Positions 16,989 to 56,944 of a stretch of 64,000 bases of DNA are shown piece after piece. The stretch is taken from contig OZ024742.1 of the NCBI GenBank assembly GCA_964016885.1, positions 195,672,001-195,736,000 of the forward strand, written 5' to 3'. Made by a program: the position numbers and the translations under genes. Source of the stretch: Eledone cirrhosa. Its lineage: Eukaryota. How positions within the stretch are numbered: the stretch's first letter is position 1; every line of letters begins with the position of its first letter. The notes under the pieces are model-generated. The model saw only the letters and a list, made by a program, of their open reading frames with translations. It was not told the DNA's origin and made no database searches.

Positions 16989-17020
<32 letters not shown>

Positions 17021-17987: not shown

Positions 17988-18018
<31 letters not shown>

Positions 18019-18125
18019 GCTGGGACAACAGCAACAACAACCACAGTCACACTTCAAACAGCAACAACAAAAATAACAACGACAACAGCAGGCACAACAG
18101 CAACAACAACCACAGTCACACTTCA

Positions 18126-18159
<34 letters not shown>

Positions 18160-18896
18160 GCTGGTACAACAGCAACAACAACCACAGTCACACTTCAAAC
18201 AACATCATCAACAACAACTACAACAACAACAGCTGTGACAACAGCAACAACAACCACAGTCACAACAACAACAACACCATCAGCTGGGACAACAACAACA
18301 AAAACCACAGTCACACTTCAAACAACAACAACAACAGCAGCTGGGACAGCAGCAACAACAACCACAGTCACACTTCAAACAACATCAACAACAACAACAA
18401 CAGCTGGGGCAACAGCAACAACAACCACAGTCACACTTCAAACAACAACAGCAACAACAACAACCACAACAGCTGGGACAACAGCAACAACAACCAAAGT
18501 CACACTTCAAACAACAACGACAACATCAACAACAACAGCTGGGACAACAGCAACAACAACAACAGTCACACTTCAAACAACAACAACAACCACAACAACA
18601 GCTGGGACAACAGCAACAACAACGACAGTCACACATCAAACAATAACAACAACTACAACAACAACAGCTGGGACAACAGCAACAACAACCACAGTCACAC
18701 TTCAAACAACAACAACAACAACAACAACAGCTGGGACAACAGCAACAACAACCACAGTCACACTTCAAACAACAACAGCAACAACAACTACAGCTGGGAC
18801 AACAGCCACAACAACCACAGTCACACTTCAAACAGCAACAACAACAATGACAACAACAGCTGGTAGAACAGCAACAACAACCACATTCACAATTCA

Positions 18897-18929
<33 letters not shown>

Positions 18930-19167
18930 TGGGACAACAGCAACAACGACCACAGTCACAATTCAAACAACAACTTCAACAACAACTACAACAGCTGGGC
19001 AACAGCAACAACAACCACAGTCACACTTCAAACAACAACAACAACAACAACAACCACAACTACAGCTGGGACAACAGCAACAACAACCACAGTCACACTT
19101 CAAACAACATCATCAACAGCAACTACAACAGCTGGGACAACAGCAACAACAACCACAGTCACACTTC

Positions 19168-19200
<33 letters not shown>

Positions 19201-19823
19201 CCACAACAGCAGGGACAACAGCAACAACAACGAAAGTCACACTTCAAACAACAACGACAACATCAACAACAACAGCTGGGACAACAGCAACAACAACGAC
19301 AGTCACACTTCAAACAACAACAACAACAACAACAACAGCTGGGACAACAGCAACAACAACGACAGTCACACATCAAACAACAACAACAACAACAACAGCT
19401 GGGACAACAGCAACAACAACCACAGTCACACTTCAAACAACAACAACTACAACAACAACAGCTGGGACAACAGCAACAACAACCACAGTCACACTTCAAA
19501 CAACAACAACAACAACAACAGCTGAGACAACAGCAACAAAAACCACAGTCACACTACAAACAACAACAACAACAACAACTACAACAACAACAACAGCTGG
19601 GACAACAGCAACAACAACCAGTCACACTTCAAACGACAACAACAACAACATCAACAACAACACCTGGGACAACAGCAACAACAACTACAGTCACACTTCA
19701 AACAACATCAACAACAACAACAACAAATGGAACAACAGCAACAACAACCACAGTCACACTTCAAACAACAACAACAACAACAACAGCTGGGACAACAGCA
19801 ACAACAACCACAGTTACACTTCA

Positions 19824-19857
<34 letters not shown>

Positions 19858-20386
19858 GCTGGGACAACAGCAACAACAACCACAGTCACACTTCAAACAA
19901 CAACAACAACAACAACAACAACCACAGTCACACTTCAAACAACATCAACAACAACAACAACAGCTGGGACAACAGCAACAACAACCACAGTCACACTTCA
20001 AACAACATCAACAACAACAACAACAGCTGGGTCAACAACAACAACAACCACAGTCACACTTCAAACAACATCAACAACAACATCACCAACAACAACAGCT
20101 GGGACAACAGCAACAACAACCACAGTCACACTTCAAACAATAACAACAACAACACCACAAACTACAGCTGGGACAACAGCAACAACAACCACAGTCACAC
20201 TTCAAACAACAACAACAACAACAACAACAGCTGGGACAACAGCAACAACAACCACAGTCACACTTCAAACTACAACAACAACAACAACAGCTGGGACAAC
20301 AACAACAACAACCACAGTCAGACTTCAAACAGCAACAACAACAACAACAGCTAGCACAACAGCAAAAACAACCACAGTCACACTTC

Positions 20387-20418
<32 letters not shown>

Positions 20419-20521
20419 GCTGGGACAACAGCAACAACAACCACAGTCACACTTCCAACAACAACAACAACAACAACAACAACAGCTGGGACAACAGCAA
20501 CAACAACCACAGTCACACTTC

Positions 20522-20553
<32 letters not shown>

Positions 20554-21178
20554 GCTGGGACAACAGCAACAACAACCACAGTCACACTTCAAACAACAAC
20601 AACAACAACAACAACAGCTGGGACAACGGCAACAACAACCACAGTCACACTTCAAACATCATCAACAACAACAACACCAACAACAACCGCTGGGACAACA
20701 GCAACAACAACCACAGTCACACTTCAAACAATAACAACAACAACAACACCAACAACAACAGCTGCGACAACAGCAAAAACAACCACAGTCACACTTCAAA
20801 CAACAACAACAACAGCTGGAACAACAACAACAACCACAGTCACACTTCAAACAACATCAACAACAACAACAACAGCTGGGACAACAGCAACAACAACCAC
20901 AGTCACACTTCAAACAACAACAACAACAACAACAGCTGGGACAACAACAACAAAAACCACAGTCACACTTCAAACAACAACAACAACAGCTGGGACAACA
21001 GCTGGGACAACAGCTGGGACAACAGCAACAACAACAACAGTCACACTTCAAACAACAACAACAACAACAACAACAACTGGGACAACAGCAACAACAACCA
21101 CAGTCACACTTCAAACAACATCAACAACAACAACAACATCAGCTGGGACAACAGCAACAACAACGACAGTCACACTTC

Positions 21179-21210
<32 letters not shown>

Positions 21211-21254
21211 TTTAGGACAACAACAACAACAACAACCACAGTTACACTTCAAAT

Positions 21255-21285
<31 letters not shown>

Positions 21286-21643
21286 GCTGGGACAACAGCA
21301 ACAACAACCACAGTCACACTTCAAACAACAACAACAACAACAACAGCTGGGACAACAGCAACAACAACCACAGTCACACTTCAAACAACAACAACAACAA
21401 CAACAACAGCTGGGACAACAGCGACAACAACCACAGTCACACTTCAAACAACAACAACAACAACAACCACAACTACAGCTGGGACAACAGCGACAACAAC
21501 CACAGTCACACTTCAAACAACAACAACAACAACAACCACAACTACAGCTGGGACAACAGCGACAACAACCACGGTCACACTTCAAACAACATCAACAACA
21601 ACAACAGCTGGGACAACAGCAACAACAACCACAGTCACTCTTC

Positions 21644-21675
<32 letters not shown>

Positions 21676-21877
21676 GTTAGGACAACAACAACAACCACAG
21701 TTACACTTCAAATAACAACAACAACAACAACAACAACAGCTGGGACAACAGCAACAACAACCACAGTCACACTTCAAACAACAACAACAACAACAGCAAC
21801 AACAACCACAGTCACACTTCAAACAACAACAACAACAACAACAGCTTGGACAACAGCAACAACCACAGTCACACTTC

Positions 21878-21926
<49 letters not shown>

Positions 21927-22040
21927 AGGTGGAACAACAACAACAACAACAACCACAGTCACACTTCAAACAACAACAATAAAAACAATAATAACTACAA
22001 CTTCAATATCTAGAACAGTAACAACAACAACAACAGCAAC
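15557..22040. repeat. 6.5-kb complex tandem array, unit GCT GGG ACA ACA GCA ACA ACA ACC ACA GTC ACA CTT CAA (ACA)n, about 55-70 bp, roughly 100 units
   Basis: Directly visible. Unit length varies in multiples of 3. Confidence 0.95.
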
Positions 22041-27298: not shown

Positions 27299-27385
<87 letters not shown>

Positions 27386-27468
27386 CGTTATTCCGGGTTG
27401 AATCGGAGGTAACCACAGTAAGTAAGGTACTCAATACATAGCAGAGTATAACAGTTTTAATATAGATG

Positions 27469-27519
27469 AGATTCTACAGGACTAGAACTGTTTCATTCAT
27501 TTGAAATCATCAGGAATCT
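27469..27519 (-). ncRNA. Type I hammerhead ribozyme motif (element A, left arm)
   Basis: Inverse of 44351-44401. Confidence 0.7.
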
Positions 27520-28470
27520 GGGTATCAAAAAATAAATATGGTATTTATAGGTCTCTACAAGTGGTAGAGGAGGGTGGGGAGTGGGATGGGTGCAGGTCAT
27601 TGGTTGATAGAAAAGGGAATTCATTAAAAGCTAATTCTACAAAGCTATAGTTTATTTTTATTTTTATTTTTATTTATTTATGTTTTTAGAGTAACAAGGG
27701 CAGACAGAATTCTATAAACAGGTTCCGGATGGCCTACCATTCCTTGTCAATAAGTTTCTCTTAAGCTAACAGATGTCTATAAAATCAGTGGGGGGTCAGT
27801 CATAGTCGATAGAATTAAAGAAAAGGGAGATTCTTTAAAAGCTAAAGTCATTAAGGTTCTACTAAGTGACAAAGGTCTAGAGAATTCTGCAGACAGATTC
27901 AAAATACTGAGTGCATATCTTACTATTATCTTCGAACTTCTCTTAAACTAATCAACTATATGCCAAAAATCAACAGACACATTCACAAAAAAACTAAAAA
28001 ACACATACTCACTCACACACTTACGCGCAACCATAAACACACACACAAACACATATACACACATAAAAACACACACACATATATATAAAAATATATAAAT
28101 ATATATTCATGTACACACACGTACATACAGACATACATACACACATACATATATAATACATATATATATATATATATATATATACATACATACATATATA
28201 TATATACATATATATATATATAAAAATATATACACATATATACACACACACATATATATATATATATATACAGCTACACACACACACATACACATACATA
28301 CACACACACGTACATATATATATACACAAATAAATACACTCACACGCATACATACAAACACGAATATACATGTATATACACACAAATACACATAGACATA
28401 TATACATACACAACACAGATACATATATATATATACATACATATATATATATACACACATATATATATAT

Positions 28471-28682
28471 ATAGGAACCAGTAAGACCCCGACAGCTGAG
28501 CTCAAGCCGTTTCGACGGCTAATTCTGGACTAAATGTCCAGAATTAGTCCAGAATTAGCCGTCGAAACGGCTTGAGCTCAGCTGTCGGGGTCTTACTGGT
28601 TCCTATTACCCACTCTACTACCTCAAGTATTGAGTACTTTGGTGCGTTATGGTCCACCTGGTTCCTTACCACATTTCCTTCG

Positions 28683-28685
<3 letters not shown>
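28471..28685 (+). mobile_element. Small fold-back PLE terminal fragment inserted in a (TA)n of the element A left arm only
   Basis: About 63-bp inverted arms (28471-28533 / 28543-28605) plus a tail. It retains the hammerhead 3' half GAA-ACGGC..GCTGT-C. Absent from the right arm near 43400. Confidence 0.7.
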
Positions 28686-28735
<50 letters not shown>

Positions 28736-28740
28736 CATAC

Positions 28741-28775
<35 letters not shown>

Positions 28776-28935
28776 TACATACATACACATACATATATAC
28801 ACACACATACGCATACATATATATATACATATACATATACACATATACATATATATATATATATATATACATATATACACATATATACATACACACACAC
28901 ACATGCGCACACACACACACACACATACATATATA

Positions 28936-29003
<68 letters not shown>

Positions 29004-29136
29004 CATACACACACATATATATATACATATACACACACATACACACAAACACACACACACATATATATATACACAAATACATATATATATATACATTCAT
29101 ATATATAACCACATACATATATACATACATACACAT

Positions 29137-29220
<84 letters not shown>

Positions 29221-29276
29221 GTATATGTATACACACACATAAACAAATATATACACATACAAACACACACACACAC

Positions 29277-29327
<51 letters not shown>

Positions 29328-29442
29328 CACATATATATACATATATATATATACACGCACACACATATATATACACACACACATATATATACACACACAC
29401 ACACACACATGCATATGTATAAACATCTATACACACACACAC

Positions 29443-29499
<57 letters not shown>

Positions 29500-29639
29500 C
29501 ATACATATATATATATATATATCCATACATATACAAACATACACATACATACACAGACCTATACATAAATATACACATATATATACAGACATATAACGCA
29601 TATATACACACACATATATACACATATATATATACACAT

Positions 29640-29674
<35 letters not shown>

Positions 29675-29772
29675 CACACACATACATATATATATATATA
29701 CACACACACACACGCGCATACACACATAGACACACAGACACATAAATATATATACACACTCTCTCTCTCACG

Positions 29773-29878
<106 letters not shown>

Positions 29879-29959
29879 CATACACACACATACATACATA
29901 CACACATACACATACACAGACACATATATATACATATATATACACATATATACACACAT

Positions 29960-30001
<42 letters not shown>

Positions 30002-30013
30002 ACATATACATAT

Positions 30014-30094
<81 letters not shown>

Positions 30095-30207
30095 CATATA
30101 TACATATATATACACACACACATACATACACATATATATATATATATACATACAAATACACACACACACTCATATATTTATATATACACACCTGCCCACA
30201 CAACTAT

Positions 30208-30276
<69 letters not shown>

Positions 30277-30575
30277 TACATATATATATATATACACACA
30301 CACACACGCACACACATACATACATACACACACACACATACATATACATATATATATATATATATACACACACTCATATATACACACATACATACATATA
30401 CATATATACATATATATATATATACATACATATATATACATATATATACACATACATATACATATATATACACATATACACACACATACATACACACATA
30501 CACATACACATACATATACATAAACATACATACATACATACACATACATACATACATACATACATACACATACAT

Positions 30576-30618
<43 letters not shown>

Positions 30619-30954
30619 CATACATATACACAAGCATATACATACATATACATACATAAATATACACACATAAAACACATATACACACAAACATATATAT
30701 ATACACATATATAAATATATATATATACACACACACATACACATATACACACATACAAACAAATATATACACATACAAGTAAATAGGTACTCAATAAATA
30801 TACGCATATACGCAGGCACATAAAGACACCTCTACAGGCAGAAAATGTAGATACGAAAGAGGTACTCACATAACCATAGTGGCCGTATTTCAGGTTGAGG
30901 AGGGGTGGGGTAGGGTGGGGAGGAGGTATAGGGGCCAATAGGGGGAGGTCGTTT

Positions 30955-32138
30955 TTAGCCATCGGGCTTTAACACTGGCTTAAAGTGTTTGAATGTTGCA
31001 AAGTTCTTGTGCATGCAGTTCGGGCAGTGTTCAGAGAGTTTGTTCAGTAGCGGGCCCTTGGCGAATAAAATTTCGTAGCTCTCTGAAATACAAAGGTCGC
31101 AGCCCTTGTGTTCTCCGTTGTAAGAGCGCGCTTTCTGGAGTATTTTCCAATTAAGCGTGAAGGGGGTGGAGTTCCTTTTGAGGTCCCAAACGTGGGAGGC
31201 GAGTGTTGTCTGATTTGATTTATCCGGTCTTCTGAAGGAGTGGGTATGGGCATACCAACGGGTCTTAAAGTTGTTGGAGGTCATGCCGATGTAAGTTTTT
31301 TTGCAATCCTCGGTGCCTCAGATGACATCGCATTTGTATACGATGTCATTTGTGAGGCATTTGTTTTCAAGTGGGCATGCTTCCTTATTTAGGCAATTAC
31401 ATAGAGCCCCAGTCCGGGGATTGGTTTCGGAGGTGGTTGGCTTATTTAGTTTAGAATTGTGGTTGGCTATATTCCTAGCTAGGTTAGGTGTGGTGGAGTA
31501 AGACAGTCTTATAGTGTTCTTATTAAAGATGGTGTAGTACCTATGTTGTATGGGGAAGTGTAATTTCAGTAAAGTGAAGAAAATCCTAGCTATCGGAGTA
31601 GATACCTCTCTATTGAAGGGAGGGTTGTACCAGCTAATCTGCCTATGTCTATTCCTCCTCTGCAAACTTGCGGTGGTCTCTAGGTAAGTTATCTTATCTT
31701 TAAATCCGCTACGGGCTAGGGCGTCATTGTAGTAGGAGGCAGATGCATTAAAAATATCTTTGTTGGCGGAGAGGCCAGATATTCTAATAGAGACGCTTTT
31801 TACTAGGTTATCAGTGATGTTTTGGGGGTGGTTAGAATTAACATTAATATATTTAAGGGACTCGTTAGGTTTGTGGTACGGGTAATAGAGGGAAGTATCT
31901 AGGTCGAGAGTGACATCTAAGAAGTTGGCCCTAGTCAAATTAGAATCTATAGTTATACTAAATCCTAGATTAGAGAAGAAAGAGCTTAAGTTTTTCCGAA
32001 ACCCATCGGTGATTCTGGGGCTAACCTTATGCAGGGCGAAGAGGCCGTCGTCTCGGTATAAACCTCCAGTTAGGCCGGTAAAGAGGTTCTTCGGGTTATG
32101 TAGGATGTACAGGCCCACAAGGTCGCTAATTTCAGCCG
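30955..32138 (-). pseudogene. Truncated PLE RT/GIY-YIG ORF (element A inverted copy) with in-frame TGA at 31318-31320
   Basis: Motifs GLYRDDG, NFLDVT, WYNPPF, CNC..CPL..C, YIG and CDLC. Confidence 0.9.
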
Positions 32139-33919
32139 TTTATGAGGTAGACCCACAGACCTACAATAAGCTGGCAAAAAATACCATCACGACCACCTAC
32201 AAAAAGGTAATAGAGAGGGCACTGACTGAGACAAACGCGGCCGGAAAAGAAATCGCCAAGTCCCTTAAATTACATGACCGAACCGAACCTTTAAGGGTAA
32301 AGAACCCGCACTTTACCCTGAAGGACCATAAGGGAAATTTCCTCAACAAACCATCAGTCAGACTTATCAACCCCACTCGTTCTGACATCGGCTCTATCAG
32401 TAAGAAGATCCTGGATAGAGTTCTACCATCATTGCGGGCAGCCTCACCACTTCCACTCTGGAGTAGAACATCTGAGGCAATATCATGGTTCCAAGAATTA
32501 CCCGATAAACACCACACTCGCTTCCTGCAACTTGACATAGAAAACTACTATGCCTCTATCTCGGAGCCCCTCCTGAAGGACGCAATTAACTTTGCCAGGA
32601 ATTTTACCACCATTACCGATGCTGAGCAAGTTATTATCCTCCACGCTCGTAAGACCTTTCTATACCACGATGGATCTTACTGGATCAACAAGAAATCTCA
32701 GACCCCATTTGACGTTAGCATGGGGGCGAGTGACTCGGCTGAAATTAGCGACCTTGTGGGCCTGTACATCCTACATAACCTGAAGAACCTCTTTACCGGC
32801 CTAACTGGAGGTTTATACCGAGACGACGGCCTCTTCGCCCTGCATAAGGTTAGCCCCAGAACCACCGATGGGTTTCGGAAAAACTTAAGCTCTTTCTTCC
32901 CTAATCTAGGATTTAGTATAACTATAGATTCTAATTTGACTAGGGCCAACTTCTTAGATGTCACTCTCGACCTAGATACTTCCCTCTATTACCCGTACCA
33001 CAAACCTAACGAGTCCCTTAAATATATTAATGTTAATTCTAACCACCCCCAAAACATCACTGATAACCTAGTAAAAAGCGTCTCTATTAGAATATCTGGC
33101 CTCTCCGCCAACAAAGATATTTTTAATGCATCTGCCTCCTACTACAATGACGCCCTAGCCCGTAGCGGATTTAAAGATAAGATAACTTACCTAGAGACCA
33201 CCGCAAGTTTGCAGAGGAGGAATAGACATAGGCAGATTAGCTGGTACAACCCTCCCTTCAATAGAGAGGTATCTACTCCGATAGCTAGGATTTTCTTCAC
33301 TTTACTGAAATTACACTTCCCCATACAACATAGGTACTACACTATCTTTAATAAGAACACTATAAGACTGTCTTACTCCACCACACCTAACCTAGCTAGG
33401 AATATAGCCAACCACAATTCTAAACTAAATAAGCCAACCACCTCCGAAACCAATCCCCGGACTGGGGCTCTATGTAATTGCCTAAATAAGGAAGCATGCC
33501 CACTTGAAAACAAATGCCTCACAAATGACATCGTATACAAATGCGATGTCATCTGAGGCACCGAGGATTGCAAAAAAACTTACATCGGCATGACCTCCAA
33601 CAACTTTAAGACCCGTTGGTATGCCCATACCCACTCCTTCAGAAGACCGGATAAATCAAATCAGACAACACTCGCCTCCCACGTTTGGGACCTCAAAAGG
33701 AACTCCACCCCCTTCACGCTTAATTGGAAAATACTCCAGAAAGCGCGCTCTTACAACGGAGGACACAAGGGCTGCGACCTTTGTATTTCAGAGAGCTACG
33801 AAATTTTATTCGCCAAGGGCCCGCTACTGAACAAACTCTCTGAACACTGCCCGAACTGCATGCACAAGAACTTTGTAACATTCAAACACTTTAAGCCAGT
33901 GTTAAAGCCCGATGGCTAA
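32138..33919 (+). CDS. 5'-truncated PLE RT + GIY-YIG ORF (element A), interrupted only by one in-frame TGA (33554-33556)
   Basis: Motifs LKDHK..RLINP, LDIENYY, MGASDS, YRDD, CNC-x5-CPL, VYKCDVI*GTEDCKKTYIG and CDLCISE. ORFs 31910-33556 and 33590-33919 are in the same frame. Confidence 0.85.
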
Positions 33920-34254
33920 AAACGACCTCCCCCTATTGGCCCCTATACCTCCTCCCCACCCTACCCCCACCCCTCCTCAACCTGAAATACGGCCACTATG
34001 GTTATGTGAGTACCTCTTTCGTATCTACATTTTCTGCCTGTAGAGGTGTCTTTATGTGCCTGCGTATATGCGTATATTTATTGAGTACCTATTTACTTGT
34101 ATGTGTATATATTTGTTTGTATGTGTGTATATGTGTATGTGTGTGTGTATATATATATATATTTATATATGTGTATATATATATGTTTGTGTGTATATGT
34201 GTTTTATGTGTGTATATTTATGTATGTATATGTATGTATATGCTTGTGTATATG

Positions 34255-34313
<59 letters not shown>

Positions 34314-34632
34314 ATGTATGTGAATGTATGTATGTATGTATGTATGTGTATGTATGTATGTATGTTTATGTATATGTATGTGTATGTGTATGTGTGTATG
34401 TATGTGTGTGTATATGTGTATATATATGTATATGTATGTGTACATATATGTATATATATGTATGTATATATATATATATATGTATATATGTATATGTATA
34501 CTAGGGAGAGGATCAGGGGTGTATAACACTCCACTTATCCAGCAGGCAGTATAAGGTTAGCTCAATGTCTGAGGACAGAGCCGTGATATAATAAATAACA
34601 AAGAACGCCTATAGCATATGCATATCTTTACT

Positions 34633-34678
34633 TGCTAACATTGTTTCATCCGCACTATAAGTGGGACTCATCAGAGCA
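34633..34678 (-). ncRNA. Type I hammerhead ribozyme motif (element B 3' pLTR)
   Basis: tgct-CTGATGA-gtcc cact tat agtg c ggat-GAAACAATGT-T-agca. Confidence 0.8.
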
Positions 34679-35365
34679 TAAAGGTTAATTACATACCATA
34701 CAAGCAATAACAAATCCAAGACATTGAAGAATGAAAAATAATAATAGACGATAAAGGATATTAAGGAAGTAAAAGTAAAAATAAAAATAGGAATAAAAAT
34801 AAAAATAAAAATAAAAATAAAAATAAGATAATAAAATAAACAATGAAAAATAAGGGGTGCTATCAGTCACAGTTGGGCGGGGTGCTGTCAACATATAGTC
34901 ACATACAAGCATACACATGGATAAGAGAACAGACAAGAGTAGATAAGATAGATAGGATTAGGTAAGAGTAGGTAAAAAATAGGTGAAAAACAGACTTATA
35001 ATATATATAAGAAAATATAAAGAAATACATAACAAACTTACATATAAAATATAAAATATACAGATAATAGTGATACAGGGTAAGGAATGAGATAAAATAA
35101 TATAAAATTAAAATTAAAATTATATAAAATAGAACATAATATAATATAATCATAAAATAAGATAAAATAAGATAAAATAAGGTAAACTAAAATAAAATAA
35201 AATAGACTAAATTAAAATAATATAATATAAGATATAATTAAATGTAATTAAATAAAATAAATGAATAAATAAATAAATAAAATTAAATAAATAAGTAAAT
35301 AAAATTAAAATTAAAATTAAAATTAAATTTAAATAAATAAATAAATACATAAATAAATAAATAAG

Positions 35366-35400
<35 letters not shown>

Positions 35401-36905
35401 ATGGAATTAAATAAGTAAATAAATAAAATTAGATAACATGAAATGAAATAAAATAAAATAAAATGAAATAAAGTAAATTGAGATAAGATATATATTTTTT
35501 TTTTTAGAATATATCTCTTGAATATATCAGGGGCCCACGAAGGCACTAAGTGTCACAGTTATGTGTATCACTTGACCATTTTTTTAAAATAGATTTCTTG
35601 AAAATATCAGGGGCCCACGAAGGCACTAAGTGTCACAGTCACCAGTATCACTTGACCATTGCAAGGCAATGGAGGCGTCCCAGGTTGGGCAGTCTCAAAA
35701 GTTCACTCGAAAGTCGCGGGTGTGCATTCACACAGTTGAGCGGTGGGGTAATCACAAACCGGTTCACACCCGGGCAGGAGTCCAATGGTCAGAGAGAGGT
35801 GCATCGAAGGAAGGTAGGAGAATTCACGTGCATTAGCAAGCGAAGTGCAGGCGGGTTAGCCAAAGCAAGCAGACACAGTTGGAGCGCATACAAAAGATAT
35901 ATAAAAAGACAGAAGATATATAAAAAATAGCTTCAAGAGCCATGAAGTCACCGCATTGGGACATCACAAGATTGTACACATCAATATGTTCAGCACGTAT
36001 ATGCACATATACACACCACATGCATATGCAGAGACGGTATACATATATATATATATATTTTTTTATATACAGACATATACAACCACCTACACCCATACAC
36101 ATATAAATGTATACACGGACACACACGCACACACACACAGCGTAGGACACCCGGGTCAAAGCTGATATTAAACACCGAAATACCACGTTAGGCCAGACCC
36201 ACCACCACGGATAATACATTCAAAATAAATACATACGATGAGATGTAGTAAAATAAAGTTGAAATCCTACGGAGATAATCGTGTCCGCACGTGCCATTGC
36301 CCGATTCAAGTGTACACAGACCGTTAGTAACTACGGAGGGCTATCGGGGCCAAAACGTTACTTTCGGGATCATAACAACGACCGTCAATATATGGAAGGC
36401 CGATCGTGCTAGAAAGACTACAACCCCGGGCAAGAGCTCCCAGAAGTCAGCCTGTAGATCTTAAACCACAGAATATGAGGGCAACACGTACATGCGCCAC
36501 GTATCCACTGCTTACGGCGGGATGGCACAGGTCCGCCCACAGTTACAGGCTAAATTTCTATTAGTGCAGCCTAAATCACAGTACACGCTTTACATAAATA
36601 CATTACATCACAACTCATGTGCATACAGAGGTACAGATCCACAAGATATACGTCAGGATAGACCCACCAATGCACCAATGGTGGGTAGGCGAGCGTGGAT
36701 GGGTTACATCCGCTGTGCCAAACAGGGGTGCTTATTAACATACACACCCACTCACCTGTACACCCCAATATCCAGATCAATATCCTCCCACAGGCATACG
36801 TATACATTCACCGACTCATATACATAGACGACCAACAATAGGAGACAGTTACACACAATCAGAGACAGTTACACAAGACAGCCCAACTGGAGGAATAAGG
36901 AAGTG

Positions 36906-39395
36906 CTAGCTAACAGGTTTAAAGTAGAAGAAAGAGCTTAATATTCGGTGGGGGCAAGAGGAAAATATTTCAGACTTTCTATTTAGTAGAGGGCATTTAG
37001 CAAATATAATAAAGTGGGATTCGGCAAGGCATAGGTTACATACTCTATTATGAGGAGTATATGGATGGGATTTAGCAACCTGCCGCCAAGTAAGTGTGTA
37101 ATGTGTTCGTGCATTTTTTAAATTATGGACGTACGCTGCCAAGGAGGTGGAGTTCCTCAGTTTATTATGTCTAAAAGTGCATTGGTGAGAGTTAAACCTT
37201 GTCTTAAAGGGGGTGGAGGTTGATCCTATATAGGTCTTAGTGGACGCCGTAGTTACTACATCACACGCATAAACTATGTTTCTAACAAGGCAGAAACCAT
37301 TCAGGGGGCAGCCTGAAGCCCTTCTACAGTTACAACCTCTGGTGATGCTATTCTCAGAATGATCACCACTTGTGTTTCTGCCCACTCTGTCCACTACCGT
37401 GTTTTCCCCTAGGCTTAGGTTGTCCAGGCCTTCCTTTATTTTCTTATTATTAGTAATGGCCAGATGAGAGGCCAGATTTTGGGTTGTAGAATACGAAAGT
37501 TTAACAACATTCTTATTGAGGATAGAGTGGTACCTATTACCAGGAGGGAAGTTCCTTTCTAACACAGAGAAGAAGGCCCTAGGAATATTTATAGCCACTT
37601 CAGAATTAAAAGGGGGGTTGAAGTATGTATTCAATCTTCTTCTATTCTTTTTATTCTTTCTATTTCCATCAGTATTATTAGCATTATTATTTCTACGGTT
37701 CCTATGCTCACCTAGTCTATGCGGGGAGCTGCGAGGCCTACCATTGCTATTACTTAGACTAATGGTGCCCTGCTGGTTCATTCCACCGGCATCTAGAAAC
37801 CTCCCATTCGCGACACCTCTATTGCTATTACTTAGACTAATGGTGCCCTGCTGCTTCATTCCACCGGCATTTAGAACCCTCCCATTCGCGACACCTCCAT
37901 TACCAATGGACATATTATGTGTTATAACAACACTGGTAGAGCTACTATTAGGACTATTATTTCCCTGGGTGTAATACAATTTGTCCCTAAAGCCGGATCT
38001 AGCTAAGGCATCATTATAGTAATCAGCCTGCCAGTCAAACGCCTCCTCACTATGTGAGAGTGAACTTATTCTGTTAGATACGCCCTTCAGTATACCGCTG
38101 ATGACCGACCTAGGGTGGTTAGAGTTGGTATTCACGTAAGTCAGCAATTCATTAGGCTTATGGTACGGTGTGTACGTATGGTTATCCAAGTCCAATGTAA
38201 CATCCAGGAAGTTCACAGTTCTATCATTTATATCCATAGTAATGGATAGGTTAAATGTTTTAAAAAAACTATGCAGCTTTTTCCTAATGCGCACTATATT
38301 ATACTTACTAGTATCTATGGAGAGTAGGGCGTCATCCCGGTACAACCCGCCCCTAAGGAAAGGGAAGTTACTATGCAGTTCATTGAGGAGGTATAGCCCA
38401 ACTAAGTCGGTGACTTGAACAGAGTCACTCGACCCCATAGTAATGTCAAAATTATCAGGTGTGTTTTTTCTCGTCCATAGATTATCCTCAAACATGATAA
38501 TGGTTTTACGTGCAGCGAGAACAATATCTATCTGTGGCCTTGTAATTGCCCCCCTTTGCATGGCTAGGATGAGGGCCTTATTGAGGATAATAGGAGATAT
38601 AGATGTATAATAAGCATCAATATCAAATTGGATGAATTTGAGTGAGTCACGACCACAATCCGTAGAGAACCACGTAATGACCTCACTAGTGTTACCCCAA
38701 AGCTCAAGGAAAGTTTTTTCTCTAACCAGGGGAATAACGCTATCCAAGATTCCCTTACTAATAATCCCCAGGTCAGACTTGGAGGGGCAGATAAGCCTAA
38801 CTGAGGGTCTGCTAATAAAATCTTCCTTGTGGTCCTTGAGGGTGAATCTAGGCTGCTTGGGGTAATAAGGCTGAGTGTGTTTATCCAGACCTAGTTTTAC
38901 CACTATGTTATACCCCTCCAGATTAATATTATCTAAATTACTCTGCGTTGTTTTTTTGTAGTTCCTATGTAGTTCATTATAAATGAAGCCTCGATAGGTT
39001 TTATAATCCATACTATATAAGTTTTTAGTTTTGTCAGAGGGGACCAGAATGGATTTATTATCCCTAAAGTCCCTAACGATTGAACTTAGTTTACTCTGAA
39101 ATTTATTGGTACATCTAGATTTTTTATATCTAATATTCCTAACAAGGGATAATAGTTCACTTTCGAAGTTATCCAACAGGCTATTATGCGGGGGGCTCCT
39201 ATAGGTCTTAAATCCATAATTATTAAAACTACGCCTCTCTTCAGGACTATCATACTTCCTATCAAAATGGAACGCACGCCACCGAACACGTTTTACGAAT
39301 GAGTTTATGCTAGTTATCAGTGATTTCTCATATGAGATTTTAGGGGGGGTGGGAATATTCTTCAAGGAAATGGGTAAGTATGTCTTTGTTAGCAT
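36906..39395 (-). CDS. Uninterrupted Penelope-like RT + C-terminal GIY-YIG endonuclease (Hydra-clade-like); first ATG at 39395 (frame open from 39437)
   Basis: Motifs SLKNIP, SDKT, LKDHK, FDIDAYY, MGSSDS, YRDD, NFLDVT, FNPPF, CNCRRASGCPLNGFC, VY..YIG, CNLC..E and CPH. No stops. Confidence 0.93.
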   Translation of the reverse strand: MLTKTYLPISLKNIPTPPKISYEKSLITSINSFVKRVRWRAFHFDRKYDSPEERRSFNNYGFKTYRSPPHNSLLDNFESELLSLVRNIRYKKSRCTNKFQSKLSSIVRDFRDNKSILVPSDKTKNLYSMDYKTYRGFIYNELHRNYKKTTQSNLDNINLEGYNIVVKLGLDKHTQPYYPKQPRFTLKDHKEDFISRPSVRLICPSKSDLGIISKGILDSVIPLVREKTFLELWGNTSEVITWFSTDCGRDSLKFIQFDIDAYYTSISPIILNKALILAMQRGAITRPQIDIVLAARKTIIMFEDNLWTRKNTPDNFDITMGSSDSVQVTDLVGLYLLNELHSNFPFLRGGLYRDDALLSIDTSKYNIVRIRKKLHSFFKTFNLSITMDINDRTVNFLDVTLDLDNHTYTPYHKPNELLTYVNTNSNHPRSVISGILKGVSNRISSLSHSEEAFDWQADYYNDALARSGFRDKLYYTQGNNSPNSSSTSVVITHNMSIGNGGVANGRVLNAGGMKQQGTISLSNSNRGVANGRFLDAGGMNQQGTISLSNSNGRPRSSPHRLGEHRNRRNNNANNTDGNRKNKKNRRRLNTYFNPPFNSEVAINIPRAFFSVLERNFPPGNRYHSILNKNVVKLSYSTTQNLASHLAITNNKKIKEGLDNLSLGENTVVDRVGRNTSGDHSENSITRGCNCRRASGCPLNGFCLVRNIVYACDVVTTASTKTYIGSTSTPFKTRFNSHQCTFRHNKLRNSTSLAAYVHNLKNARTHYTLTWRQVAKSHPYTPHNRVCNLCLAESHFIIFAKCPLLNRKSEIFSSCPHRILSSFFYFKPVS

Positions 39396-39604
39396 ACTGC
39401 CTGATAATATACAAGGACACAAATTCACGTATATCAAAGTTTAAGCTCAACCAGTGGGAGCCGTATAGTATACTAGGGAGAGGATCAGGGGTGTATAACA
39501 CTCCACTTATCCACCAGGCAGTATAAGGTTAGCTCAATGTCTGAGGACAGAGCCGTGATATAATAAATAACAAAGAACGCCTATAGCATATGCATATCTT
39601 TACT

Positions 39605-39650
39605 TGCTAACATTGTTTCATCCGCACTATAAGTGGGACTCATCAGAGCA
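39605..39650 (-). ncRNA. Type I hammerhead ribozyme motif (element B upstream pLTR)
   Basis: Identical core to 34633-34678. Confidence 0.8.
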
Positions 39651-40963
39651 TAAAGGTTAATTACATACCATACAAGCAATAACAAATCCAAGACATTGAA
39701 GAATGAAAAATAATAATAGACGATAAAGGATATTAAGGAAGTAAAAGTAAAAATAAAAATAGGAATAAAAATAAAAATAAAAATAAAAATAAGATAATAA
39801 AATAAACAATGAAAAATAAGGGGTGCTATCAGTCACAGTTGGGCGGGGTGCACGTATATGCACATATACACACCACATGCATATGCAGAGACGGTATACA
39901 TATATATATATATTTTTTTTTATATACAGACATATACAACCACCTACACCCATACACATATAAATGTATACACGGACACACACGCACACACACACAGCGT
40001 AGGACACGTTTTGGCCCCGATAGCCCTCCGTAGTTACTAACGGTCTGTGTACACTTGAATCGGGCAATGGCACGTGCGGACACGATTATCTCCGTAGGAT
40101 TTCAACTTTATTTTACTACATCTCATCGTATGTATTTATTTTGAATGTATTATCCGTGGTGGTGGGTCTGGCCTAACGTGGTATTTCGGTGTTTAATATC
40201 AGCTTTGACCCGGGTGTCCTACGCTGTGTGTGTGTGCGTGTGTGTCCGTGTATACATTTATATGTGTATGGGTGTAGGTCGTTGTATATGTCTGTATATA
40301 AAAAAATATATATATATATATGTATACCGTCTCTGCATATGCATGTGGTGTGTATATGTGCATATACGTGCTGAACATATTGATGTGTACAATCTTGTGA
40401 TGTCCCAATGCGGTGACTTCATGGCTCTTGAAGCTATTTTTTATATATCTTCTGTCTTTTTATATATCTTTTGTATGCGCTCCAACTGTGTCTGCTTGCT
40501 TTGGCTAACCCGCCTGCACTTCGCTTGCTAATGCACGTGAATTCTCCTACCTTCCTTCGATGCACCTCTCTCTGACCATTGGACTCCTGCCCGGGTGTGA
40601 ACCGGTTTGTGATTACCCCACCGCTCAACTGTGTGAATGCACACCCGCGACTTTCGAGTGAACTTTTGAGACTGCCCAACCTGGGACGCCTCCATTGCCT
40701 TGCAATGGTCAAGTGATACTGGTGACTGTGACACTTAGTGCCTTCGTGGGCCCCTGATATTTTCAAGAAATATATTTTAAAAAAATGGTCAAGTGATACA
40801 CATAACTGTGACACTTAGTGCCTTCGTGGGCCCTTGATATATTCAAGAGATATATTCTAAAAAAAAAAATATATATCTTATCTCAATTTACTTTATTTCA
40901 TTTTATTTTATTTTATTTCATTTCATGTTATCTAATTTTATTTATTTACTTATTTAATTCCAT

Positions 40964-41002
<39 letters not shown>

Positions 41003-41699
41003 CTTATTTATTTATTTATGTATTTATTTATTTATTTAAATTTAATTTTAATTTTAATTTTAATTTTATTTATTTATTTATTTAATTTTATTTATTTATT
41101 TATTTATTCATTTATTTTATTTAATTACATTTAATTATATCTTATATTATATTATTTTAATTTAGTCTATTTTATTTTATTTTAGTTTACCTTATTTTAT
41201 CTTATTTTATCTTATTTTATGATTATATTATATTATGTTCTATTTTATATAATTTTAATTTTAATTTTATATTATTTTATCTCATTCCTTACCCTGTATC
41301 ACTATTATCTGTATATTTTATATTTTATATGTAAGTTTGTTATGTATTTCTTTATATTTTCTTATATATATTATAAGTCTGTTTTTCACCTATTTTTTAC
41401 CTACTCTTACCTAATCCTATCTATCTTATCTACTCTTGTCTGTTCTCTTATCCATGTGTATGCTTGTATGTGACTATATGTTGACAGCACCCCGCCCAAC
41501 TGTGACTGATAGCACCCCTTATTTTTCATTGTTTATTTTATTATCTTATTTTTATTTTTATTTTTATTTTTATTTTTATTTTTATTCCTATTTTTATTTT
41601 TACTTTTACTTCCTTAATATCCTTTATCGTCTATTATTATTTTTCATTCTTCAATGTCTTGGATTTGTTATTGCTTGTATGGTATGTAATTAACCTTTA

Positions 41700-41745
41700 T
41701 GCTCTGATGAGTCCCACTTATAGTGCGGATGAAACAATGTTAGCA
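41700..41745 (+). ncRNA. Type I hammerhead ribozyme motif (element B inverted arm)
   Basis: CTGATGA at 41704-41710, GAAA at 41731-41734, stem I tgct/agca, cleavage triplet GUU. Confidence 0.8.
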
Positions 41746-41789
41746 AGTAAAGATATGCATATGCTATAGGCGTTCTTTGTTATTTATTA

Positions 41790-41821
41790 TATATATGTAT
41801 ATGTATGTATGTGTGTATATA

Positions 41822-41852
<31 letters not shown>

Positions 41853-41997
41853 GTATATGTATGTGTGTGTGTGTATGTATGTATGTGTGTGCGTGTGTGT
41901 GTGTGTATATATATATATTTGAGTGTGTGTGTGTATTTGTATGTATATATATATATATATATATATGTGTATGTATGTGTGTGTGTATATATATGTA

Positions 41998-42062
<65 letters not shown>

Positions 42063-42065
42063 ATA

Positions 42066-42102
<37 letters not shown>

Positions 42103-42231
42103 ATATGTATATGTATGTATATATATATATATATATGTGTGTGTGTCTGTATGTGTGTATATATGTGTATATATATGTATATATATGTGTCTGTGTATGT
42201 GTATGTGTGTATGTATGTATGTGTGTGTATG

Positions 42232-42276
<45 letters not shown>

Positions 42277-42279
42277 ATA

Positions 42280-42325
<46 letters not shown>

Positions 42326-42417
42326 CGTGAGAGAGAGAGTGTGTATATATATTTGTGTGTGTGTGTGTGTATGTGTGTATGCGCGTGTGTGTGTGTGTAT
42401 ATATATATATATATGTA

Positions 42418-42468
<51 letters not shown>

Positions 42469-42628
42469 ATGTGTATATATATATGTGTATATATGTGTGT
42501 GTATATATGCGTTATATGTCTGTATATATATGTGTATATTTATGTATAGGTCTGTGTATGTATGTGTATGTTTGTATATGTATGGATATATATATATATA
42601 TACATGTATATAAATATATATATGTATG

Positions 42629-42713
<85 letters not shown>

Positions 42714-42752
42714 GTGTGTGTGTATATAGATGTTTATACATATGCATGTGTA

Positions 42753-42785
<33 letters not shown>

Positions 42786-42900
42786 GTGTGTGTATATATA
42801 TGTGTGTGCGTGTATGTATATATATGTATGTGTATGTATGTATGTGTGTGTGTGTGTTTGTATGTGTATATATTTGTTTATGTGTGTGTATATATATATA

Positions 42901-42971
<71 letters not shown>

Positions 42972-43107
42972 ATGTGTATGTATGTATATATGTATGTGGT
43001 TATATATATGAATGTATATATATATATGTATTTGTGTATATATATATGTGTGTGTGTGTTTGTGTGTATGTGTGTGTATATGTATATATATATGTGTGTG
43101 TATGGGT

Positions 43108-43172
<65 letters not shown>

Positions 43173-43591
43173 TATATATGTATGTGTGTGTGTGTGTGCG
43201 CATGTGTGTGTGTGTATGTATATATGTATATATATATATATATATGTATATGTGTATATGTATATGTATATATATATGTATGCGTATGTGTGTGTATATA
43301 TGTATGTGTATGTATGTATGTGTGTGTGTATGTGTGTATATATATATATATGTATGTATATGTATATATATATATATATTTATATATATATTTATATATA
43401 TATATGTGTGTGTATATATATATATGTATGTATATATATATATGTATCTGTGTTGTGTATGTATATATGTCTATGTGTATTTGTGTGTATATACATGTAT
43501 ATTCGTATTTGTATGTATGCGTGTGAGTGTATTTATTTGTGTATATATATATGTGCGTGTGTGTGTATGTATGTGTATGTGTGTGTGTGTA

Positions 43592-43634
<43 letters not shown>

Positions 43635-44418
43635 ATATATGTGTATATATTTTTATATATATATATATGTATATATATATATGTATGTATGTATATATAT
43701 ATATATATATATATATGTATTATATATGTATGTGTGTATGTATGTCTGTATGTACGTGTGTGTACATGAATATATATTTATATATTTTTATATATATGTG
43801 TGTGTGTTTTTATGTGTGTATATGTGTTTGTGTGTGTGTTTATGGTTGCGCGTAAGTGTGTGAGTGAGTATGTGTTTTTTTGTTTTTTTGTGAATGTGTC
43901 TGTTGATTTTTGGCATATAGTTGATTAGTTTAAGAGAAGTTCGAAGATAATAGTAAGATATGCACTCAGTATTTTGAATCTGTCTGCAGAATTCTCTAGA
44001 CCTTTGTCACTTAGTAGAACCTTAATGACTTTAGCTTTTAAAGAATCTCCCTTTTCTTTAATTCTATCGACTATGACTGACCCCCCACTGATTTTATAGA
44101 CATCTGTTAGCTTAAGAGAAACTTATTGACAAGGAATGGTAGGCCATCCGGAACCTGTTTATAGAATTCTGTCTGCCCTTGTTACTCTAAAAACATAAAT
44201 AAATAAAAATAAAAATAAACTATAGCTTTGTAGAATTAGCTTTTAATGAATTCCCTTTTCTATCAACCAATGACCTGCACCCATCCCACTCCCCACCCTC
44301 TCCTACCACTTGTAGAGACCTATAAATACCATATTTATTTTTTGATACCCAGATTCCTGATGATTTCAAATGAATGAAACAGTTCTAGTCCTGTAGAATC
44401 TCATCTATATTAAAACTA
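41790..44418 (+). mobile_element. Distal part of the element A right arm (compound microsatellite plus unique terminal segment 43860-44418)
   Basis: Reverse complement of 27453-30410. Confidence 0.9.
44351..44401 (+). ncRNA. Type I hammerhead ribozyme motif (element A terminus)
   Basis: agattc-CTGATGA-t ttca aa tgaa t-GAA-ACAG ttctagtc CTGT-A-gaatct: 6-bp stem I, 4-bp stem III, GUA triplet. Confidence 0.72.
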
Positions 44419-45030
<612 letters not shown>

Positions 45031-54088: not shown

Positions 54089-54326
54089 TAGTTATGTAAT
54101 AAACAACATAAGATAATTATTTCATTTACCAGTGGTTTCTTGAGTACAGATATTTATATCTGTCTTCAGTCCTCAGAAAGAATAGTAAGGAAAGTTTATT
54201 AAATATCTATATTTAATAAACTTTCCTTATTATTCTTTCTGATGACTGAAGACAGATATAAATATCTGTACTCAAGAAACCACTGGTAAATGAAATAATT
54301 ATGTTATATTGTTTATTACATAACTA
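54089..54326. repeat. Near-perfect 238-bp palindrome containing a hammerhead-like motif (54229-54299)
   Basis: About 118-bp arms. CTGATGA, long stem II (acagatat aa atatctgt), then GAA-ACC act GGT-A. Confidence 0.75.
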
Positions 54327-54342: not shown

Positions 54343-56944
54343 GTAATGATAATAAATTTAAAGACTAAAATCCAAAGAGGGCTCGATAAGGATAAATATA
54401 TATCAAATATATAAGAACAGTAGAGCAAATATTTATTAAAATAACAGATTAAAGTTTAAGCAAAGAATCGCTGCTTTCACCCTTAACGGGATCTTCTGAA
54501 ACTAACAAAGTTAATCTGTGAACGCAGAAGTGAATATTTCAAAAAACGCTGCAACCGGAAGAAGACAGGAAGATGATACTTTGGTTCGTGGAAACGTTCC
54601 CTGGCAAAGAACGGGGGAAAACGAATATAATACGTCATTATTTGGAGCGGTGAAAAACAATTACACGCAAAGACAAAACCACGTTTATGGTATAAAAGAA
54701 GTCGTAGACTAATATTGTATTAGGTGGTTCATAGAGACGTTCTCTGGCAATGAACGAAAAAAACGAAGATAATACGTCATATGTGGAACGGGGAGAACAA
54801 TTGCACGCAAAGACAAAACTACGTAAATGGTAAAACTGAAGTCGTAGACTAAAGTTCTAACTAGGAAACCGAATGATTTCCAGCTTCAGAGTTAAGAATA
54901 AAGTAAATAAAATACAGAGGTAAATGAAATTAAATAAATACATACACACGCATCCATATACGTACATACACAAGCATACGCGAAAACACTCGCCATAGGT
55001 ATACAAAAACACGCACGTACAAAAAAAAACCGCACGCACATACAGAACCCACGCAACGCCTGTACCCGCACACATACGAATGTATACACCGAATACACAT
55101 AAAATATATATAAAAAAATATATATATATGTGTGTGTGTGCGTGTATACATATAATCAAATAAACGTATATAAATAAATAAATACGTATATAACAAGCGC
55201 ACACACAAACCTACATGTAAATACACTTATGTTCGGAGACGTACGTCAACCAAAAACACGAAGTACACATATACACACACCCTACATACGTACGAACCCG
55301 CATATTCACACAGACGCAAAACTCACGTATACACATAACCAAAAGCATATGTACCACAAAAAATAATATATACGCCATAACATATACAATCAAATATACG
55401 TACGAGAAAGTATACGTACCTTCACAAAACATACAGGTAATATATACTTACCTATACAAATAAGTAATGGTATAAACATAACATATACTTAGCTACCACA
55501 TCAAGACGTAAAATATCCGCGTAAAGTTCGTACTATCCGTTAGGGTATAATGTGGGGCTATAATACAGGAAAGTTTTGTGCAATTTATGTTTACAAGCCG
55601 AAATTGCCTCAGATTTTTTGTGTAAGATGTGGTCTTTGGCGTAGAGTATTTCCAGGGCCTCAGCGGCGCAGAGGTCACATGGTCTTTTATTTCCGTTATA
55701 CGATCTAGCCCTAGCTAGGATCTCCCAGTGTAATTTATATTGGGTCTGGTTGTCTTTTAGACTACAGATATAAGCTGAAAGTGACGTCATATTCCTTCTT
55801 AAAGGGTAACGAAAAGAATGGGTATGCATGTAAAGACGCTGTTTGAATCTATTGGCGGTTAACCCTATGTAGGCCCTACGGGACGTGGGTGTTTCAACCT
55901 TACATTTGTAGACAATGTTACTAGAGTGGCATTTCCCGGATAGGGGGCAGTCAACCCGATTCCTACAATTACAGTTAGTACTAACTACAGGGTTGCACGT
56001 GTTCCTACGGCTAGGTAGTTTAGCTAAATTTGAAGCTGTGATGTTATGTGCAAGGTTAGGACTCGTAGAGTAAGAAATTTTAATAGTATTTCTATTAAAA
56101 ATGTTACTATATTTATGTGTAGGGGGAAAATGCTTCATAATAAGGGAGAAAAAGATCTTAGCTAATGTTGTGGCCACCTCCATATTATATGGTGGGTTAT
56201 ACCATATAATGCGTCGGGATCTATTTCTTCTAGGTCTATTCTCGTACTCTGTATATGCGACATTATCGACAAATCCACTTCGAGCAAGAGCTTCATTGTA
56301 ATATGTGGAATGGTCGTTGAAAATATGCTCGTTAGTAGATAGACGGGAAAGCCTCAAAGAAACTTTACTTACCAGGTTCTTGGTTATGCTGGCAGGATTG
56401 TTAGAATGCTTGTGTATGTACGTATATGGATGCGTGTGTATGTATTTATTTATTTTCATTTACTTCTGTATTTTATTTACTTTATTCTTAACTCTGAAGC
56501 TGGGAATCATTCGTCTTCCTAGCTAGAACTTTAGTCTACGACTTCAGTTTTACTATTTACGTGGTTTTGTCTTTGCGTGCAATTGTTCTCCCCGCTCCAC
56601 ATATGACGTATTATCTTTGTTTTTTTCGTTCATTGCCAGAGAACGTCTCTATGAACCACCTAATACAATATTAGTCTACGACTTCTTTTATACCATAAAC
56701 GTGGTTTTGTCTTTGCGTGTAATTGTTTTTCACCGCTCCAAATAATGACGTATTATATTCGTTTTTTCCCGTTCTTTGCCAGGGAACGTTTCCACGAACC
56801 GAAGTATCGTCCTCCTGTCTTCCTCCGGTTGCAGCGTTTTTTTGAAATATTCACTTCTGCGTTCACAGATTGACTTTGTTAGTTTCAGAAGATCCCGTTA
56901 AGTGTGAAAGCACCGATTCTTTGCTTAAACTTTAATCTGTTATT

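Follow-up and report, generated by a model that had tools for sequence, protein, structure and literature searches.

A long Hydra-clade Penelope-like element of Eledone cirrhosa with paired tailed and tail-less ends, bulged hairpins and hammerheads

We analysed a stretch of 64,000 nucleotides from Eledone cirrhosa (GCA_964016885.1, contig OZ024742.1, positions 195,672,001 to 195,736,000), referred to below as the window. It contains a Penelope-like element (PLE) that lies between 34 and 42 kb and encodes a reverse transcriptase (RT) and an endonuclease in one open reading frame (ORF), accompanied by a partial tandem repeat (pLTR) and an inverted arm. The element itself is ordinary: it adds a new and unusually long member to a known clade. 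What makes its family interesting is a counted rule by which the ends are paired, together with hairpins beside these ends and a reset of the repeats; twin priming on one RNA is the probable reading. The way in which PLEs acquire tandem and inverted structures, and the function of their hammerheads, are stated to be open questions (PMC8557442, PMC11167929).

Structure of the insertion

The features of the element, from left to right in window coordinates, are listed here with their basis in brackets.

34483-34499, no strand: target-site duplication, left copy, nominally 13 bp (10-17 bp given TA microhomology), in the 3' untranslated region (UTR) microsatellite of an outer element (empty-site alignment)
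34496-34585, minus: tail of about 90 nt between start site A and start site B (junctions)
34560-34581, minus: bulged hairpin B (GCUC-stem-UU-GAGC), 3' copy (fold, comparison)
34586-34590, minus: start site B with ATATA microhomology, end of tail-less copies (termini)
34626-34683, minus: 3' copy of the type I hammerhead in sense orientation, with the cut predicted to follow 34637 (sequence, conservation, fold)
34684-36905, minus: long 3' UTR containing AT-rich microsatellites, the stop and the cut being 2.27 kb apart (sequence)
36906-39395, minus: ORF of 829 aa with RT, thumb, low-complexity insert, CxCx5C linker and GIY-YIG endonuclease (frame, motifs, predicted structure)
36948-37334, minus: CxC-x5-CP linker and GIY-YIG endonuclease without CCHH, aa about 688-816 (motifs)
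37659-37949, minus: in-frame Asn/Gly/Ser-rich insert, about 95 aa beyond the usual length, containing a 78-bp tandem duplication (alignment, prediction)
39445-39461, minus: bulged hairpin A, found at the internal repeat-ORF junction only (comparison)
39463-39851, minus: 5' partial tandem (pLTR), holding hairpin B at 39532-39553 and site B (BLAST)
39464-39467, minus: internal-junction copy of start site A, with TATA microhomology (termini)
39598-39655, minus: 5' copy of the type I hammerhead in sense orientation, with the cut predicted to follow 39609 (sequence)
39850-40007, minus: 3' UTR piece, a copy of 35993-36150, joined over a 1.1-kb deletion with 2-nt microhomology (BLAST, copy comparison)
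40006-41792, plus: inverted arm, 5'-truncated and tail-less, with its end at start site B (BLAST, termini)
41695-41752, plus: type I hammerhead of the inverted arm, antisense to the ORF (sequence)
41790-41806, no strand: target-site duplication, right copy (empty-site alignment)

The repeats were mapped with BLAST, as the output of the repeat finder was swamped by microsatellites. The direct repeats (34490-34883 and 39463-39851) were one substitution and one AATAAA unit apart, and the inverted arm differed from 34586-36358 by four substitutions and three slips over 1,787 columns, bearing out the near-identity that a previous reading made from the sequence only (the sequence-only reading) had described. 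Of the two ends of the window copy, one is tailed and the other tail-less. Every element end among the listed termini adjoined a TA-rich repeat, as did 12 of 13 one-armed 5' junctions, indicating (TA)n targets. In the window copy alone, among 30 copies compared, the 5' partial tandem skips 34884-35994, a feature absent from the earlier reading. An intron was ruled out as the origin of this skip: the junction misses GT-AG by 3 nt and is private to the window copy. The 3' UTR also holds two 80-bp direct units at 35499-35660, whose copy number varies between subfamilies.

Coding frame and clade

The stop-free frame runs from 39440 to 36906 on the minus strand (844 codons from stop to stop), and its first ATG, at 39395-39393, gives an 829-aa protein with the RT followed by a C-terminal GIY-YIG endonuclease. 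It carries RWR at aa 38-40 (among 81 homologues, K occupies that site in 52 and R in 18), DKT in place of DKG at aa 121-123, YRDD, the CxC-x5-CP linker as CNCRRASGCP at aa 688-697, and CxxC and CxH at aa 786-789 and 814-816, which lie around the conserved E and N, with C786, C789, C814 and H816 present in 80 of 81 homologues. The CCHH motif is missing: the frame has no CxxC between IVY and TYIG, nor did any of the 54 rows that could be parsed in an 82-row alignment have one between VY and YIG. The frame and motifs of the earlier reading were thereby confirmed. The Asn/Gly/Ser-rich insert is predicted to be disordered and is near-neutral (pN/pS 0.8), and the spacer from thumb to endonuclease measures 121 aa against 20-72 in 58 homologues. 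Neither a Pfam profile search nor a sequence search of the PDB gave a match to the protein. Its predicted structure (pLDDT 85.8) had telomerase reverse transcriptases (TERTs) as best structural matches, with an E value of 7e-10 and a TM-score of only about 0.3.

The element is almost certainly a member of the Hydra clade, as had been proposed on the motifs. Craig et al. 2021 (PMC8557442) characterise this clade by the motifs RWK and DKT, by a CxCx5C linker and the loss of CCHH, by CxxC and CxH close to the end, and by canonical hammerheads and insertion at (TA)n. The element grouped with metagenome locus L271 in an RT tree of 37 rows, apart from six CCHH-bearing PLEs of the Eledone genome, with support of 100/99. 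This tree was midpoint-rooted and comprised one published anchor (L271) and outgroups labelled by motif only, with no Athena, Coprina, Naiad or TERT rows. L271 matches the published Penelope-1_NV over a 43-aa stretch and in the hammerhead with its flanks, and its RT core is 37% identical to that of the element; identity to Neptune-type elements of the Eledone genome was about 25% over 67-86 aa. These Neptune-type PLEs (L312-L331) have open frames of up to 1,096 aa, and the genome holds a further CCHH-bearing type. The endonuclease CCHH and the DKG of the Neptune, Nematis and Penelope-Poseidon groups are both lacking in the element, its endonuclease is C-terminal and not N-terminal as in Naiad and Chlamys, and its 5-kb coding unit sets it apart from non-LTR retrozymes with their short non-coding tandem units. 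Its 4,972-nt unit also exceeds the size given for the Hydra clade (<3 kb), a figure that is descriptive and not diagnostic.

Hammerheads

The three type I hammerheads are identical, with cores at 34674 and 39646 on the minus strand and 41704 on the plus strand. Each consists of CUGAUGA, an 8-bp stem II with a bulge, GAAA, a stem III of ACA-A-UGU and the triplet GUU, in line with the canonical core and very short stem III reported earlier. The hammerhead call rests on the intact core, on the match to published Hydra layouts and on conservation in the family, and self-cleavage is predicted. The hammerhead was the most conserved segment measured: with L066 and L140 left out, 123 of 184 copies were identical and divergence was 0.49%, compared to 0.9-6.2% in other segments. 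Variation within the family was too small to show any covariation. An Rfam search did not report the window hammerheads at E<=1, giving microsatellite matches only, and a 75-mer folded no better than shuffles (z -0.67). The C-G pair of stem III had a predicted probability of 0.002 in the monomer, and the palindrome was predicted to pair two copies at -3.4 kcal/mol, which agrees with the report that animal type I hammerheads behave better as dimers (PMC4209133).

The two sense hammerheads bracket the ORF, and the predicted cut-to-cut unit is 4,972 nt (39608-34637). The spacing of about 4.97 kb given by the sequence-only reading thus held; a linear unit cannot be the direct template, since the copies end 50 and 140 nt past the cut.

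Further motifs resembling hammerhead cores were seen in the window at 26641, 46548, 54169-54290 and 62384 (the last with a fold z of -2.2). The pair at 54176 (minus) and 54239 (plus) resembles a small head-to-head stub.

Two fixed ends and their hairpins

Copies of the family end either at site A (34491-34496), leaving a tail, or at site B (34586-34590), without one. These sites lie about 140 and 50 nt downstream of the predicted hammerhead cut, both have a TATA microhomology of 4-5 nt to the TA run, and the same 7-mer follows both on the RNA. Genome-wide, 163 tailed and 122 tail-less exact junctions were found.

A GCUC-stem-YY-GAGC hairpin is present at +55 and +147 from the hammerhead of the window element. 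We surveyed 45 distinct hammerheads, 44 from the metagenome and one from the window family, and the hairpin was found at +30-65 nt in 34 of 45 (background 0.6%) and at +90-165 nt in 21 of 41 (1.3%). Its first inner pair was C-G or U-A in 53 of 56 hairpins; the shuffle mean was 40 and none of 10,000 shuffles reached this value, relatedness being uncorrected. In five distant Hydra families the copies end 3-6 nt before the hairpin. The hairpins thus probably position the start of reverse transcription.

At the metagenome loci L204-L281, ACU and pyrimidines usually come after the hairpin; the window element lacks them. The ORF-bearing arms of L038, L064 and L065 have their 5' ends at 39441-39443, just past hairpin A, and the 5' tandem of L035 ends at site B; these ends may reflect obstacles that stop the RT, or insertion of the element into a start site of its own.

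Tailed and tail-less ends are paired

The published accounts consulted describe the PLE tail only as 'optional' (PMC3846280) or as 'often at one end'. In the window family the convergent end pairs on C1-C6 combined a tailed with a tail-less end in 33 of 34 cases (49% expected, p about 1e-9), two of the 33 being one duplicated pair. The lone pair of the same kind, L110 (C4:9385337-9387790), is a perfect palindrome with mirror-image flanks, which indicate a later inverted duplication or an assembly artefact. We also read by eye a random draw of 40 unpaired ends: a hidden partner of the opposite kind was present for 16 and one of the same kind for none, 19 were one-armed and five could not be resolved. 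In a second Hydra family all 28 head-to-head pairs in the first 83 Mb of C1 were mixed; the same stretch also had two tail-to-tail tailed pairs and one same-strand pair.

Independent choice of sites would yield half of the pairs of the same kind, and the two priming events are thus coupled; one RNA with two binding sites would be the simplest coupling. Among 46 two-armed insertions the longer arm was the tailed one in 24 and the tail-less one in 17, and the arms were equal in five. In the 17 insertions with the longer tail-less arm, neither arm is contained in the other, and simple snap-back copying is thereby excluded. In 13 selected long overlaps the arms of one insertion were closer to each other than to any other copy.

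Template and reset of the repeats

With L110 and L140 left out, 104 of 119 arms run through the predicted cut site and one ends there, with no pile-up of truncations. The repeat-ORF junction, close to the 5' end of the unit transcript, is the only place that has hairpin A and the full pair of start sites. On a linear cut product, a start at that junction would copy only 50-140 nt, and the linear 4,972-nt product can therefore not be the direct template.

In 31 ORF-bearing insertions, variants shared with other insertions were present in both repeats 303 times and in one repeat 26 times, and the same one-sided variant was seen twice at two sites only. This count dropped L031 (a second view of L032), L066/L068 (one array) and L140 (a duplicate). 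The sharing of variants by the 5' and 3' repeats indicates that the repeats are reset each cycle.

Proposed mechanism and alternatives

Twin priming on one circular or tandem RNA is the reading that fits these sequence patterns best, and we consider it moderately probable. The endonuclease would make a staggered cut in (TA)n, matching the 10-17 bp duplication, and two RTs would bind the two hairpins of one RNA. Each 3' end of the cut strands would then pair with the UAUA beside its hairpin and prime there. The two cDNAs would grow inward from opposite target strands, stop independently and be joined head to head; one-armed copies would be those in which one arm was lost or had no length. Less surely, copying of the whole ORF would need an upstream unit, given start sites near the 5' end of the unit transcript. 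The simplest source would be the cut 4,972-nt monomer, circularised or crossed by an end-to-end jump, and copied through more than one full turn, so that the 5' repeat would be rebuilt every cycle; this too is less sure. A circular template from the hammerhead-cut unit has been proposed for PLEs (PMC4209133), and the choice between a circle and a tandem transcript is evenly balanced. In a Poseidon PLE two internal RT start sites define the tail, both strands are cut and extended, and a dimer is predicted (PMC11167929). The full form of the model, in which a dimeric telomerase-like RT on two hairpins of a hammerhead-made 5-kb circle carries out programmed twin priming from both (TA)n strands, is tentative, its dimer being taken by analogy from the Poseidon element (PMC11167929).

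Several observations weigh against twin priming on such an RNA. When all overlaps were taken, short ones and alignment noise included, the distance within an insertion was at or below that to the closest other copy in no more than 42 of the 81 inverted comparisons and 30 of the 43 direct ones. The 303 shared repeat variants are not independent, many coming from two long tandems, and gene conversion or homogenised master tandems, of which full examples exist, could give the same pattern. The hairpin counts take no account of relatedness, one family (L206) diverges far from the hairpin, and stalling of tailed arms at hairpin B was not significant (6/58 vs 1/61, p 0.057). The second Hydra family keeps the pairing rule and has hairpin B but no recognisable hairpin A, so that this hairpin is not required in such form. 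With the Poseidon element in vitro, start-site use showed no difference between strands and the start sites had no homology to the target; insertion did not need the hammerhead, and no RNA ends lay at the cut (PMC11167929).

The strongest alternative, although we hold it unlikely, is that the template is uncleaved read-through RNA of rare full-tandem master loci, with the hammerhead having another or no role in copying; twin priming may still apply in that case. Full tandems do occur, at two loci (C15, C1002) among 42 exact junctions, with a near-tandem at L038. The arm ends that fail to gather at the cut and the barely populated monomer stem III (P 0.002) also fit uncleaved RNA, as do the Poseidon hammerhead mutants, which insert normally in vitro and give no reads ending at the cut (PMC11167929). 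However, each such cycle would lose a junction, so the arrays would have to regrow somehow, and the hammerhead is the best conserved of the segments measured. Both exact full tandems, moreover, bear the ATGC junction variant of a more diverged subfamily, and in the one haplotype available the window variant was in none.

Snap-back self-priming, in which the first cDNA or an antisense template is copied to give the inverted arm and the endonuclease trims at two TA sites so that one tail is left (the model of PMC3846280), is improbable. The arms are much alike, with 50 private variants common to both and 141 in one arm; arm ends lie within 10 nt of each other in 5 of 46 insertions, and palindromic junctions are known from rotifer elements (PMC3846280). 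Conversion after insertion or a shared parent would account for the shared private variants as well, though, and the model has to face both the 17 of 46 insertions without containment and the finding that tail ends matched RT start sites in vitro and not DNA trimming (PMC11167929). It is very improbable that transposition uses the linear 4.97-kb cut product as its template and that the window copy is an active source: the frame is intact between two sense hammerheads and the hammerhead is conserved, but copies end 50 and 140 nt past the cut with an intact hammerhead, sequence that the linear product has only at its 5' end, and both Val326 and the 1.1-kb deletion are private to this copy. The linear piece could at most be an mRNA or the precursor of a circle.

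Age of the family and genomic setting

In the Eledone genome (3.0 Gb) at least 40 ORF-bearing matches at 96-100% were found; near-identical copies elsewhere had been set as a test by the earlier reading. Among 41 start codons examined (39 loci and the window copy) there were 15 full-length frames, and shared variants among 14 frames of equal length gave a pN/pS of 0.19. The family is young and under purifying selection, judged from these sequences. The window copy is intact in frame and has three amino-acid changes private to it. One of these, Val326, falls in RT motif B', at a position with Ala in 74 of 81 homologues and Val in none. The description as a potentially active element therefore suits the family better than this copy, whose status as a source is only potential.

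The window element is inserted in the right arm of an element of the second Hydra family, whose RT core is 46% identical to that of the window family. What had passed for the left flank is the 3' UTR of this outer element, a point missed in the earlier reading. The left arm of the outer element supplies the empty site, from which the target duplication of 10-17 bp follows. The outer arms differ by three substitutions in about 1,365 bp and the inner arms by four in about 1,770, so that both elements are young; the recent insertion claimed for the inner one was upheld by this low divergence and by the empty-site alignment. The two arms of the outer element are as follows.

27385-32735, minus: left arm, tailed end (tail of about 70 nt), hammerhead core at 27513 (alignment)
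32137-44425, plus: right arm, interrupted by the insertion, sharing 32137-32735 with the left-arm span, tail-less end, hammerhead core at 44357 (alignment)

The outer element (27385-44425) is 5'-truncated, with a TGA at 33554-33556 in its right arm and a microsatellite 3' UTR of about 3 kb; its hammerhead, read by eye, has a 4-bp stem III and a GUA triplet. The second family is far more abundant, with 5,163 tailed and 3,606 tail-less exact ends (>8,700). A remnant of a third Hydra-like element lies at 55551-56423 on the minus strand (38-46% to the window ORF), and 16000-22000 shows a strong strand skew over 6 kb (AT skew about 0.74, GC skew about -0.57), likely a simple-sequence array. Over 33900-42000 of the window, the depth at the 3' end of the element was about 170-fold that at the ORF start in run X4, the kind of which was not recorded, and about 14-fold in run X1.

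In a second organism (B) we found pieces with 0-8 differences per 137-263 nt, and a 228-nt stretch over the tail and hammerhead was identical. Recent shared ancestry or transfer is possible.

Significance and comparison with known systems

If true, programmed twin priming would explain the tail, the inverted arm and the regeneration of the pLTR in one reaction, and would place programmed two-strand priming in the retroelement group closest to telomerase. The hairpin would then offer a compact means of loading RNA onto an RT that targets TA. With two mapped start sites, covarying hairpins, a strict pairing rule and many intact young copies, the family turns the open PLE questions into testable ones. 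We found no description of the bulged hairpin, the counted pairing rule or the repeat reset in the open-access literature; most subscription papers and Repbase reports fell outside this scope, and supplementary figures of PMC11167929 and PMC8557442 may bear on it.

Members of the Hydra clade, including Hydra-1_Obim and Penelope-1_NV (PMC8557442), share with the element RW[KR], DKT, the CxCx5C linker, the absence of CCHH and the CxxC/CxH motifs, and also a canonical type I hammerhead whose stem III is palindromic and has a 1-nt loop, insertion into (TA)n and a partial tandem with an inverted arm. The likeness to Hydra-1_Obim was judged by eye only. The unit of 4.97 kb differs from the clade size of under about 3 kb (the longest listed is 3,045 bp, inverted copy included), and the tail of about 90 nt from the 30-40 bp stated for PLEs (PMC8557442). 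The 2.3-kb 3' UTR and the disordered Asn/Gly/Ser-rich insert also set the element apart from the Hydra members described there.

The Penelopes of Adineta vaga (Arkhipova et al. 2013, PMC3846280) likewise have a pair of direct pLTRs and a single inverted one, and their target-site duplications of 8-10 bp, optional tail at one inverted pLTR and Asn-rich in-frame inserts are comparable to those seen here, although the inserts span 460-550 aa in contrast to about 95 aa in the element. The self-priming model given for them misfits 17 of 46 insertions of the window family. PAc, the Poseidon element of Anolis carolinensis (Frangieh et al. 2024, PMC11167929), also has two internal start sites 3' of the hammerhead that define the tail, and AT-rich targets. 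It belongs to another clade and has an AC-rich stem loop where the element has a bulged hairpin; its in vitro start sites showed no strand difference and no target homology, whereas the element has TATA microhomology at both sites and coupled ends. Non-LTR retrozymes (PMC4209133, PMC7229834, bioRxiv 10.64898/2026.07.22.740005) resemble the element in having type I hammerheads with a weak palindromic stem III that work better as dimers. They are non-coding and 170-400 nt long, and their cut monomers circularise; for a 5-kb coding PLE the circle is a proposal only.

Compared to TERT, the element has an endonuclease and copies kilobases. The analogy lies in the priming: the telomerase primer anneals to a short stretch of template adjacent to a structured RNA element, as the TA-rich 3' ends may do beside the hairpins of the window family.

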